This document shows, piece after piece, positions 25,687 through 31,068 of a stretch of DNA of 64,000 nt. The notes beneath the pieces are model-generated. The model did no database searches. It saw only the letters and a list, made by a program, of their open reading frames with translations, and had not been told where the DNA came from. Every line of letters begins with the position of its first letter. Within the stretch, counting starts at the first letter, position 1. Origin of the DNA: Escherichia coli (GTDB lineage: Bacteria; Pseudomonadota; Gammaproteobacteria; Enterobacterales; Enterobacteriaceae); assembly GCF_050320075.1 (NCBI RefSeq), contig NZ_CP190018.1. The stretch is one strand, 5' to 3'. The position numbers and the translations under genes are program-made.

Positions 25687-26973
25687 TTACGCGTTATAGG
25701 CATTTTCGCCGTGGCTGTTGACGTCAAGCCCTTCTCGCTCCTGTTCTTCCGGCACACGCAGGCCAACCGTCAGATCCGCCAGTTTGTAGCCGATAAATGC
25801 CACCACACCGGACCAGACGATCGTAATGGCGATGCTTTCCAGCTGTACCAGCAACTGATGGCCCATCGTCACACCTTCAGCGAAGCCCACGCCGCCCAGC
25901 GAACTGGCGGCAAAAATCCCGGTCATGATACAGCCGACAATGCCACAAACGCCGTGCACACCGAAGACATCGCAGGGATCATCCACCCGCAGCAAGCGTT
26001 TGAGCATGGTAACGCCCCACAAGCCCGCCAGACCAGCTACCACGCCGATAATCAACGCGCCGCCAACACCAATGTAGCCACACGCTGGCGTCACGCCGAC
26101 CAGACCGGCAATCGCGCCAGAACACGCTCCCAGCAGTGAAGGCTTTCCGCGCAGCGCCCATTCACCGAAGATCCAGCCAAGAATTGCTGCCGCCGTTGCG
26201 ACCACAGTATTCACAAATGCCAGTGCCGCGATTTCATTCGCCGTGCCCGCTGACCCGGCGTTAAAGCCAAACCAACCGATATAGAGAATGGCAGTCCCGG
26301 TGAAGACCATCGGCAGGTTGTGCGGTTTAAACGCCTCTTTACCGAAGCCCACGCGTTTGCCTATCAGATATGCGCCCACCAGACCGGCGATTGCGGCGTT
26401 AATGTGCACCACCGTGCCACCCGCGAAATCCAGCGCACCGTGAGAAGCCAGCAAACCACCGCCCCAGACCATATGCGCAATCGGAATGTAGGAGAGCGTC
26501 AGCCATACCACCACGAAAATCAACACAGCTGAGAAGCGGATTCGTTCCGCCAGCGCCCCAACTATCAAGCCTACGGTAATGCAGGCAAACGATCCCTGAA
26601 ACGCTACGTGGATATACTGATAAATGCTGCCCATCACCGCCGTCAGTTCGATGTTTTTCAGCATCAACCAGTTAATGTTGCCGAAGAAGTTGTTTCCCTC
26701 ACCAAACGCCAGCGAGTAACCGTAAACCACCCAGAGAATACAGACCAGTGCAAACGTCACCGTCACCTGCGTCAGCATCGACAGCACGTTTTTGCCGCGA
26801 ATCAACCCACCGTAAAACAGGGCAATCCCCGGAATAGTCATAAACAGCACCAGCGCAGTACAAATCATCATAAACGCATTGTCGGCTTTATCGGCCACCG
26901 CAGGTGCAGCCATTACCAGTCCCGGCAGCATCGCCAGTGAAGCAAGCCCAGTTTTTATCGTCGCTATCTTCAT
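25687..26973 (-). CDS. amtB: Ammonium transporter AmtB
   Basis: 428-aa ORF with signal peptide and Amt/MEP architecture; immediately downstream of glnK. Confidence 0.97.
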   Translation of the reverse strand: MKIATIKTGLASLAMLPGLVMAAPAVADKADNAFMMICTALVLFMTIPGIALFYGGLIRGKNVLSMLTQVTVTFALVCILWVVYGYSLAFGEGNNFFGNINWLMLKNIELTAVMGSIYQYIHVAFQGSFACITVGLIVGALAERIRFSAVLIFVVVWLTLSYIPIAHMVWGGGLLASHGALDFAGGTVVHINAAIAGLVGAYLIGKRVGFGKEAFKPHNLPMVFTGTAILYIGWFGFNAGSAGTANEIAALAFVNTVVATAAAILGWIFGEWALRGKPSLLGACSGAIAGLVGVTPACGYIGVGGALIIGVVAGLAGLWGVTMLKRLLRVDDPCDVFGVHGVCGIVGCIMTGIFAASSLGGVGFAEGVTMGHQLLVQLESIAITIVWSGVVAFIGYKLADLTVGLRVPEEQEREGLDVNSHGENAYNA

Positions 26974-27002
26974 TTTTCGTTCCTGTTGCTGTGTGCCAGA
27001 GA

Positions 27003-27341
27003 TTACAGCGCCGATTCGTCGGCTTCGCCGGTACGAATACGAATGACGCGTTGCAATTCAGCGACGAAGATTTTGCCGTCGCCAATTTTTCCGGTGTAAG
27101 CCGCTTTGCTGACGATATCGATCACTTCATCGAGTTGGTCATCAGCAATCGCCACATCAATTTTTACTTTTGGCAGGAAATTGACGCTGTATTCCGCCCC
27201 CCGGTACAGCTCGGCATGTCCTTTCTGACGCCCGAAACCTTTCACTTCGGTGACGGTCAGGCCCTGAATACCAATGGAAGATAACGCTTCACGAACGTCT
27301 TCCAGCTTGAATGGTTTGATTATCACGGTCACCAGCTTCAT
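27003..27341 (-). CDS. glnK: Nitrogen regulatory protein PII-2 (GlnK)
   Basis: ORF track 158 aa; true start MKLVTVIIKPFKLEDVREAL (112 aa), uridylylation loop RGAEYSV. Confidence 0.97.
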   Translation of the reverse strand: MKLVTVIIKPFKLEDVREALSSIGIQGLTVTEVKGFGRQKGHAELYRGAEYSVNFLPKVKIDVAIADDQLDEVIDIVSKAAYTGKIGDGKIFVAELQRVIRIRTGEADESAL

Positions 27342-27393
27342 AGATCCCCTCCGGTCAGAATTCGGTAATGGTTCTGCTACACGAAGAAGGTAT

Positions 27394-27409
27394 TGCAAGC
27401 GGTGTGCCA
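27394..27409 (-). promoter_or_regulatory. Sigma-54 (-24/-12) promoter of glnK-amtB
   Basis: Minus strand reads TGGCAC-N5-TTGCA; inverted TGCACC...GGTGCA motifs further upstream fit NtrC enhancer sites. Confidence 0.7.
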
Positions 27410-27521
27410 GAAATGAAAAACGAGAAGGAGAGCAGGAAGTTAAGAAGATTGAAAACAAAAACGCACTATGACAGTGCACAGTGCGTTACATTTTTGCACC
27501 AACGATGAAATATTGCGCTAT

Positions 27522-31068
<3,547 letters not shown>

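Follow-up and report, generated by a model that had tools for sequence, protein, structure and literature searches.

The locus is the intergenic region between mdlB and glnK of Escherichia coli, analysed within a 64-kb window, by which the whole stretch of DNA under study (64,000 nucleotides) is meant. Positions 27342-27521 make up the entire 180-bp mdlB-glnK spacer, and mdlB, glnK and amtB are all located on the minus strand of the window. The spacer is framed by the following genes and codons.

27522-29303, minus strand: mdlB coding sequence, 593 amino acids (translation MRSFSQ...SLSA*), in the same direction as glnK; RefSeq annotation of identical DNA
27524-27522, minus strand: mdlB stop codon TGA; ORF list, sequence and RefSeq annotation
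27341-27339, minus strand: glnK start codon ATG; sequence
27003-27341, minus strand: glnK coding sequence, PII-2 nitrogen regulator, 112 amino acids; ORF and RefSeq annotation
25687-26973, minus strand: amtB coding sequence, ammonium channel, 428 amino acids; ORF and MG1655 annotation

The second gene of the operon, amtB, is located 29 nt past glnK. In strain MG1655 the genes are ordered mdlA, mdlB, glnK, amtB, and the mdlB-glnK spacer likewise comprises 180 bp. Of 5426 complete E. coli genomes, 5421 contained a match covering 80% or more of a 371-bp query around the spacer, and this query was 100% identical to records that carry mdlB and glnK annotations at the flanks. The locus shares 99% identity with K-12 MG1655, without any difference in the promoter and the dyads described below. 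Two further open reading frames, a GTG-initiated one of 158 amino acids (27003-27479) and one of 65 amino acids on the plus strand (27274-27471), were dismissed as mechanical output of the ORF finder, because they run through the promoter and through spacer sequence that cannot be aligned between genera. A scan of positions 26900-27700 against Rfam (E <= 1) returned no RNA family.

For comparison, orthologous loci were collected with one genome per species, giving 14 Enterobacterales loci and one Orbaceae locus among the matches listed; Salmonella and Klebsiella pneumoniae were outside the ortholog set among these matches. The promoter and leader were aligned in 16 sequences ranging from Escherichia to Orbaceae, and the dyads were compared in 15 loci, namely MG1655 and the 14 Enterobacterales loci, again among the matches listed. 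Within the same matches, mdlB is positioned directly upstream of glnK on the same strand in all Enterobacterales loci.

The promoter and leader of glnK comprise the following elements of the spacer.

27394-27409, minus strand: sigma-54 promoter TGGCACACCGCTTGCA, an exact match to TGGCAC-N5-TTGCA
27383, minus strand: predicted transcription start (MG1655 U00096.3 position 472556), derived from the published motif centre
27342-27382, minus strand: glnK 5' UTR, approximately 42 nt including the start base 27383; sequence, alignment and folding
27362-27358, minus strand: conserved AATTC motif in the 5' UTR; alignment
27352-27346, minus strand: Shine-Dalgarno sequence GGAGGGG within the 5' UTR

The GG of the -24 element lies at 27408-27407 and the GC of the -12 element at 27396-27395 (minus strand). 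In the 64-kb window TGGCAC-N5-TTGCA has this single exact match, compared with 0.04 expected from dinucleotide shuffles, and four of 100 shuffles held an exact match. Every orthologue among the 16 sequences from the matches listed carries TGGCAY-N5-YTGCW in the sense direction 59-104 nt before the glnK ATG, and in the alignment of these sequences no columns other than TGGCA, TTGC and the start codon are invariant. The sense orientation and the short distance to the gene are those of a sigma-54 promoter, with a predicted start 42 nt before the ATG. The published data agree with this assignment. A sigma-54 ChIP-seq peak, OS03, contains CTGGCACACCGCTTGCA, a motif whose centre lies 61 bp ahead of the glnK ATG (PMC4591121) and which corresponds to positions 27410-27394 of the window, and gSELEX revealed in vitro binding of both the RpoN holoenzyme and NtrC to the mdlB-glnK spacer (PMC8743547). 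The core of glnKp has been described as a perfect match to the -24/-12 consensus (PMC7045595). In 2015 the glnK promoter was classed as 'predicted' in EcoCyc (PMC4591121). The start was placed 19 bp past the motif centre and 42 nt before the ATG in the same study (PMC4591121), so that the exact start at 27383 is to be read as a predicted position.

According to the sigma-54 ChIP-seq study, many E. coli sigma-54 sites are intragenic and transcriptionally silent (PMC4591121). A rival explanation is that the motif matches by chance or is bound without productive transcription, glnK being transcribed from a different promoter or by transcripts that read through from mdlAB. The probability of this explanation is close to nil. 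It is contradicted by the low number of exact matches expected per window, by the invariance of the motif in 16 orthologues at the level of genera (among the matches listed), always in sense and 59-104 nt before the ATG, and by a scan of positions 26900-27800 that yielded no sigma-70-like promoter. In addition, glnK mRNA is NtrC-dependent, being undetected after deletion of glnG (PMC4066584), and the promoter fragment of Salmonella is sigma-54-dependent.

The earlier note on this DNA had located the promoter and its upstream repeats in a glnK leader that overlaps the mdlB 3' region. From the coordinates of the flanking mdlB stop codon and glnK ATG, the interval it covered, 27343-27521, matches the intergenic spacer except for one base. 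The promoter and the dyads are positioned upstream of the predicted start at 27383 and do not belong to the leader, which consists of 27383-27342 only. The interval begins one base after the stop codon and does not overlap the mdlB coding sequence; it overlaps at most a putative mdlB 3' UTR or terminator.

Upstream of the promoter, two palindromic elements resemble binding sites of NtrC and are separated from the promoter by a spacer of variable sequence.

27462-27478, minus strand: NtrC-type dyad 1, strong, TGCACTGTCATAGTGCG, centred at -87 from the predicted start
27482-27498, minus strand: NtrC-type dyad 2, weak, TGCAAAAATGTAACGCA, with its centre at -107 relative to the predicted start
27411-27449, minus strand: pyrimidine-rich spacer with T-tracts between enhancer and promoter, varying in length and sequence among genera

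Each dyad spans 17 bp; the two are separated by a gap of 3 nt and their centres are 20 bp apart. Dyad 1 shows one mismatch to TGCAC-N7-GTGCA in ten core positions. The pattern TGCAC-N7-GTGCR occurs once in the window compared with 0.62 expected occurrences and is, taken alone, no rarer than chance. The weight given to dyad 1 is therefore that of its position, its conservation and the published binding data. NGCAC-N7-GTGCG was found exactly once within the 420 nt before glnK in each of the 15 loci of the comparison set (among the matches listed). Dyad 2 deviates from TGCACC-N4-TGGTGCA in five of 13 positions, and for this reason its assignment is a putative one; its register is likewise provisional, being set solely by the cross-species alignment. 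This register (TGCAN-N7-RCGCR or GGCG, with the gap of 3 nt) is kept in Escherichia, Citrobacter, Enterobacter, Yersinia, Rahnella and Acerihabitans and is less evident in Photorhabdus and Klebsiella sp. BIGb0407. With centres at -87 and -107, both dyads are located at a distance typical for enhancers of sigma-54 promoters, roughly 80-150 bp upstream. No other NtrC-like dyad was found in the mdlB-glnK spacer. TGGTGCA at 27501-27495 was considered as the right half of a further upstream dyad and rejected, since the left half, ATTTC, is mismatched and by visual inspection not conserved.

The reading of TGGCAC-N5-TTGCA in the earlier note was exact, and the element is unique at 27394-27409, but its strand, the minus strand, needs to be stated. 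Similarly, NtrC-type repeats are indeed present upstream, but not as the literal TGCACC...GGTGCA pair that had been described. The dyads are degenerate, and the interval harbors a single TGCACC, on the plus strand at 27495-27500, and this hexamer reads as GGTGCA on the minus strand.

Binding of NtrC to this region has been shown by ChIP-seq in nitrogen-starved cells, where glnK-amtB was peak 1 with 39.7-fold enrichment (PMC4066584). The resolution of these data is an 80-bp bin next to the ATG, which is too coarse to place the dyads, and the base-level positions of the NtrC sites given here are predictions from the sequence. NtrC-specific activation of glnKp was reported to be approximately 400-fold higher in ammonium starvation (PMC3870243), and the glnK enhancer was described as weaker than that of glnAp2 and as requiring more NtrC~P (PMC10657418).

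The palindromic region also has the appearance of a canonical hairpin followed by a U-run, and the dyad pattern by itself does not exceed chance expectation. Both observations would suit an interpretation in which the region is only a terminator of mdlB and NtrC acts elsewhere or indirectly. This interpretation is very improbable. GCAC-N7-GTGCG is kept in Yersinia, Rahnella, Acerihabitans and Photorhabdus, where the context of T-run and hairpin is absent, and the region lies as far from a sigma-54 promoter as enhancers usually do, promoters of this type being unable to fire without an activator. Moreover, NtrC binds the spacer in vivo and in vitro according to the published data, and an alternative NtrC-like dyad is missing from the spacer.

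The spacer is assigned, with a probability of about 0.95, as the NtrC- and sigma-54-dependent glnK-amtB promoter already known from E. coli, read on the minus strand. This is textbook nitrogen regulation, and the functional motifs are identical to those of the K-12 element that has already been studied. The interpretation is both supported and known, owing to the published ChIP-seq of sigma-54 and NtrC, the gSELEX on identical sequence and the reporter data from Salmonella. The nitrogen-limitation control proposed in the earlier note agrees with the ChIP-seq and gSELEX results on the same sequence and with the conservation among orthologues, and its rating as expected biology was appropriate for a promoter well studied in K-12. 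Its observation is partly confirmed and right in substance, and its interpretation is supported. The main finding itself adds little; its value lies in the corrections concerning strand, coordinates, dyad sequences and the overlap with mdlB.

According to this assignment, sigma-54 RNA polymerase would sit as a closed complex on 27409-27394. Under nitrogen limitation, phosphorylated NtrC would assemble on both adjacent dyads at -87 and -107, reach the polymerase by looping out the pyrimidine-rich spacer of approximately 50 bp, and use ATP for promoter opening; the geometry of the loop is a presumed one. The transcript would start near 27383 with a leader of approximately 42 nt, followed by glnK and amtB. 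The spacer at 27411-27449 could not be aligned between genera, and the distance from dyad to promoter is longer in Enterobacter. No IHF-like site with up to one mismatch was present between enhancer and promoter, and the counts of such sites across the window correspond to chance.

The arrangement resembles glnAp2 of the glnALG operon, where NtrC~P likewise activates a sigma-54 promoter by way of 17-bp dyads (type TGCACC-N5-GGTGCA) located upstream. At glnAp2, however, NtrC has two sites of high affinity, positioned at -140 and -108, whereas of the two glnK dyads the one at -87 is good and the one at -107 poor. The glnK dyads are also located nearer to the promoter and to each other than the sites of glnAp2. 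Furthermore, glnAp2 is accompanied by an overlapping sigma-70 promoter, glnAp1, and by low-affinity 'governor' sites (PMC3870243), whereas the glnK region has neither. The pairing of a strong with a weak site would form a weak enhancer, and for that reason the operon may fire only at high NtrC~P, later than glnA. The combination of one good and one poor site fits the late activation at high NtrC~P that has been reported. A close counterpart exists in the glnK-amtB operon of Salmonella Typhimurium (STM0462), where the orthologous sigma-54 site TGGCACATCCTTTGCAAT was bound in ChIP-chip experiments (PMC3844500). It differs from the E. coli site in the spacer bases between -24 and -12. Under nitrogen limitation the activity of the Salmonella glnK promoter rose from 1.1 to 1778 Miller units, an induction of approximately 1600-fold, in a sigma-54-dependent manner (PMC3844500).

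The two dyads also combine into a structure that resembles an intrinsic terminator of the upstream operon.

27450-27487, minus strand: intrinsic-terminator-like element, a hairpin followed by a T-run; terminator scan
27487-27460, minus strand: hairpin AACGCACTGTG/CACTGT/CATAGTGCGTT with 11 pairs, five of them G-C, and a loop of 6 nt
27459-27450, minus strand: tail TTTGTTTTCA, directly after the hairpin

Each arm of the hairpin corresponds to the right half of one dyad, dyad 2 or dyad 1, and 34 nt separate the hairpin from the mdlB stop codon. A stable, G+C-rich hairpin followed by a U-run is hence present downstream of the co-directional mdlB. The hairpin has a dG of -12.9 kcal/mol in the window, and the RNA of the 86-nt stretch 27530-27445 folds at -25 kcal/mol (z = -2.45). 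All ten orthologues from Enterobacteriaceae harbor the hairpin, with dG values between -11.5 and -19.4 kcal/mol, directly followed by T5-8, and across these ten hairpins 93.6% of the cells are paired. In a 900-bp region the terminator scan gave two overlapping matches compared with 0.9 +/- 1.0 in shuffled sequences, a difference that is not significant alone. The element shares with canonical intrinsic terminators the 11-bp G+C-rich hairpin, the 6-nt loop, the subsequent UUUUUGUUUU, the position 34 nt past a stop codon and an upstream A-run. In contrast to canonical terminators, the stem consists of half-sites of the activator enhancer of the next operon, and termination is putative.

Most of the hairpin pairs are formed by invariant bases of the NtrC half-sites. 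This leads to an alternative in which the dyads serve as an NtrC enhancer only, the RNA hairpin being an unavoidable by-product of adjacent palindromic sites and the T-run a DNA bend or without a role, while mdlAB transcription would be halted in another way, for example by Rho. Such an arrangement stands an even chance of being the correct one. It is favored by the hairpin arms being the conserved NtrC half-sites themselves, and by Yersinia, Rahnella and Acerihabitans, which keep both dyads and lack a terminator-like site throughout the spacer. Yersinia carries A5 on the same strand exactly where the Enterobacteriaceae carry T5-8, which suits a strand-independent role of the DNA. Intrinsic bending by A/T-tracts would also be useful because the spacer contains no IHF-like site. 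Finally, the searchable supplements of three studies of RNA 3' ends (Adams 2021, TERMITe 2025 and SMRT-Cappable-seq) hold no entry for mdlB or glnK and no coordinate near 4724xx-4725xx, a result that fits the enhancer-only arrangement. The missing 3' ends of mdlAB may also reflect an expression of mdlAB that is too weak.

Several features argue against a role confined to the enhancer. The residues T48-T51 right after the hairpin are invariant in the ten Enterobacteriaceae, whereas the remaining spacer is unalignable. A base outside both dyads, located in the 3-nt gap, covaries with a dyad base, the pair being C-G in five sequences and U-A in five; this is the only covarying pair and probably reflects a single event. 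The AA preceding the left arm is 90% conserved although it lies outside the NtrC consensus, and it pairs with the first two U residues. The location 34 nt past the stop codon of a gene in the same direction is one typical of terminators, and Photorhabdus has a separate hairpin with a T-run just past its dyad. Judged from these sequence features, the hairpin with its U-run may represent a working intrinsic terminator of mdlAB, a tentative proposal whose chances lie a little short of even.

If the terminator is functional, the same DNA would provide two means of shielding glnK from the mdlAB transcript that arrives in the same direction, as a secondary layer on the regulation described above. 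The first would be the RNA hairpin built from the dyads with its U-run, a probable intrinsic terminator, and the second would be pairing of CCUUCUUC with the Shine-Dalgarno sequence of glnK, confined to read-through RNA. The enhancer of glnK in Enterobacteriaceae would then be used twice, the dyads docking NtrC as DNA and the hairpin with its U-run ending mdlAB as RNA, and together with the anti-Shine-Dalgarno segment two layers of insulation would result. This combined proposal is a tentative one that is somewhat more doubtful than not. If true, the two layers would prevent expression of glnK-amtB when nitrogen is in excess, although an operon of the same direction lies only 180 bp upstream. 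Since bound NtrC and the terminator share the same DNA, nitrogen status could influence the end of the mdlAB transcript. An overlap of enhancer and terminator, if real, would be a compact case of one sequence acting at the level of both DNA and RNA, and would help to explain the very tight off state of glnK (activation of approximately 400-fold on ammonium starvation). It is the only part of the locus of possible interest to specialists.

The second layer corresponds to a segment at the predicted transcription start.

27383-27390, minus strand: anti-Shine-Dalgarno 'insulator' segment CCTTCTTC, located immediately before the predicted start and extending to it

Levy et al. showed that a 50-bp fragment of glnKp silences downstream translation when it is transcribed from upstream, and that this silencing of read-through translation requires a CT-rich 7-mer centred at -4 (bioRxiv 10.1101/086108). 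The glnKp fragment is the founding example of this type of insulator, and the published 7-mer, CCTTCTT, is positioned at 27390-27384 of the window. In their construct the fragment was followed by a synthetic ribosome binding site and mCherry, and mdlB or a terminator is not mentioned (bioRxiv 10.1101/086108). In the predicted fold of the native read-through RNA, the segment at 27390-27383 (-7 to +1) pairs with all seven bases of the Shine-Dalgarno sequence, and the probability of the latter being unpaired is 0.01, compared with 0.37 in the transcript from 27383. When the 60 nt upstream of the start were replaced by mononucleotide shuffles and the native leader and Shine-Dalgarno sequence were kept, the mean probability was approximately 0.10, and 7-10% of these shuffles reached a value as low as the native one. 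The additional occlusion is absent in Citrobacter, Superficieibacter, Yersinia and Klebsiella sp., and it is pronounced only in Escherichia and a single Enterobacter. An occlusion that is conserved and specific to this arrangement was rejected, as it is unsupported outside Escherichia and shuffled sequences behave similarly. It is best seen as a feature at the level of Escherichia that is largely reproduced by shuffled upstream sequence of equal base composition. A second candidate in the leader, the hairpin CAGAA-N11-UUCUG from the folding prediction, was rejected as a conserved structure, because its left arm is missing in Superficieibacter and others.

Within E. coli, variation is confined to a few positions. 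The element is the same as glnKp of K-12 (the b0450 upstream region in EcoCyc/RegulonDB), and no base of the promoter, the two dyads, the hairpin or the leader differs from MG1655, whereas the 180-bp spacer contains four substitutions, all outside the motifs. Two of these are located in the T-run, which reads TTTTTGTTTT here and in E. albertii as opposed to TTTTCATTTT in MG1655, O157 and most E. coli. Of the other two, one changes AAACTT to AATCTT in the spacer and one lies within a CT tract. The dyads and the core elements of the promoter are invariant in six E. coli strains sampled across the range of identity and in E. albertii, and the variable sites of these sequences are the T-run and the spacer.

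The hairpin predicted for the NtrC-type dyads upstream of glnK is followed by a T-run that differs between alleles.

27452-27461: T-run 3' of the hairpin, from the allele comparison with the sampled E. coli and E. albertii

The window shares the allele TTTTTGTTTT with E. albertii, and MG1655, O157:H7 and the remaining sampled E. coli carry TTTTCATTTT. Among 5423 E. coli records, no more than 203 share at least 99% identity with the window spacer, therefore the T-run of the window represents a minority allele. TTTTTGTTTT is probably the ancestral form. The difference between the alleles could be of functional importance if the run serves as the U-tract of a terminator.

In Photorhabdus (loci L019 and L020) no T-run is fused to the NtrC-type dyad. 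In P. caribbeanensis the dyad is directly followed by a hairpin of its own, GGGAGAGTA...CTCTCCTCCC, with TTCTTATT after it. This arrangement would fit a requirement for termination within the mdlB-glnK spacer that different lineages meet in different ways. Outside the window, an 'orphan' RNA 3' end is listed 53 nt upstream of glnH (MG1655 848057, minus strand; Adams et al. 2021, supplement). As the 3'-flank of this end contains the sigma-54 promoter glnHp2, CTGGCACGATTTTTTCA (Adams et al. 2021, supplement), a transcript arriving from upstream stops at another NtrC-dependent promoter. A transcript ending at glnHp2 may be a parallel to the insulation proposed for the glnK promoter, by which glnK would be kept silent despite read-through from mdlAB.

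Two observations fall downstream of the promoter: a short motif in the glnK leader and the end of the spacer match in one E. coli isolate.

27358-27362, minus strand: AATTC motif in the glnK leader, from the alignment of promoter and leader in 16 orthologous sequences
approximately 27356 (locus positions ~206-246): end of the match between the window spacer and L084, the locus of E. coli isolate 30859_5#287

In the alignment AATTC, located 15-25 nt 5' of the ATG, is common to E. coli through Yersinia, Rahnella and Acerihabitans, whereas the leader is otherwise unalignable across genera. A leader hairpin involving AATTC was rejected, as the hairpin is not conserved. The spacer match in the isolate (NZ_OZ040756.1) ends after ...GAATTCTG and continues with GGTGATGCTGCCAACTTACTGATTTAGTGTATGATGGTG, which we take to resemble the terminal repeat of IS1. 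If so, an insertion sequence is positioned between the sigma-54 promoter and the Shine-Dalgarno sequence of glnK. No glnK coding sequence is annotated in the 40 nt past the end of the match.

The ORF finder predicted two reading frames across the spacer.

27003-27479, minus strand: 158-aa ORF, a GTG-initiated extension of glnK through the promoter
27274-27471, plus strand: 65-aa ORF antisense across the glnK leader

Both are most likely artefacts and span sequence that is rich in indels between genera.

A search of complete E. coli assemblies with window positions 27250-27620 placed the mdlB-glnK region on plasmid-typed records instead of chromosomes in two of 5424 matching places.
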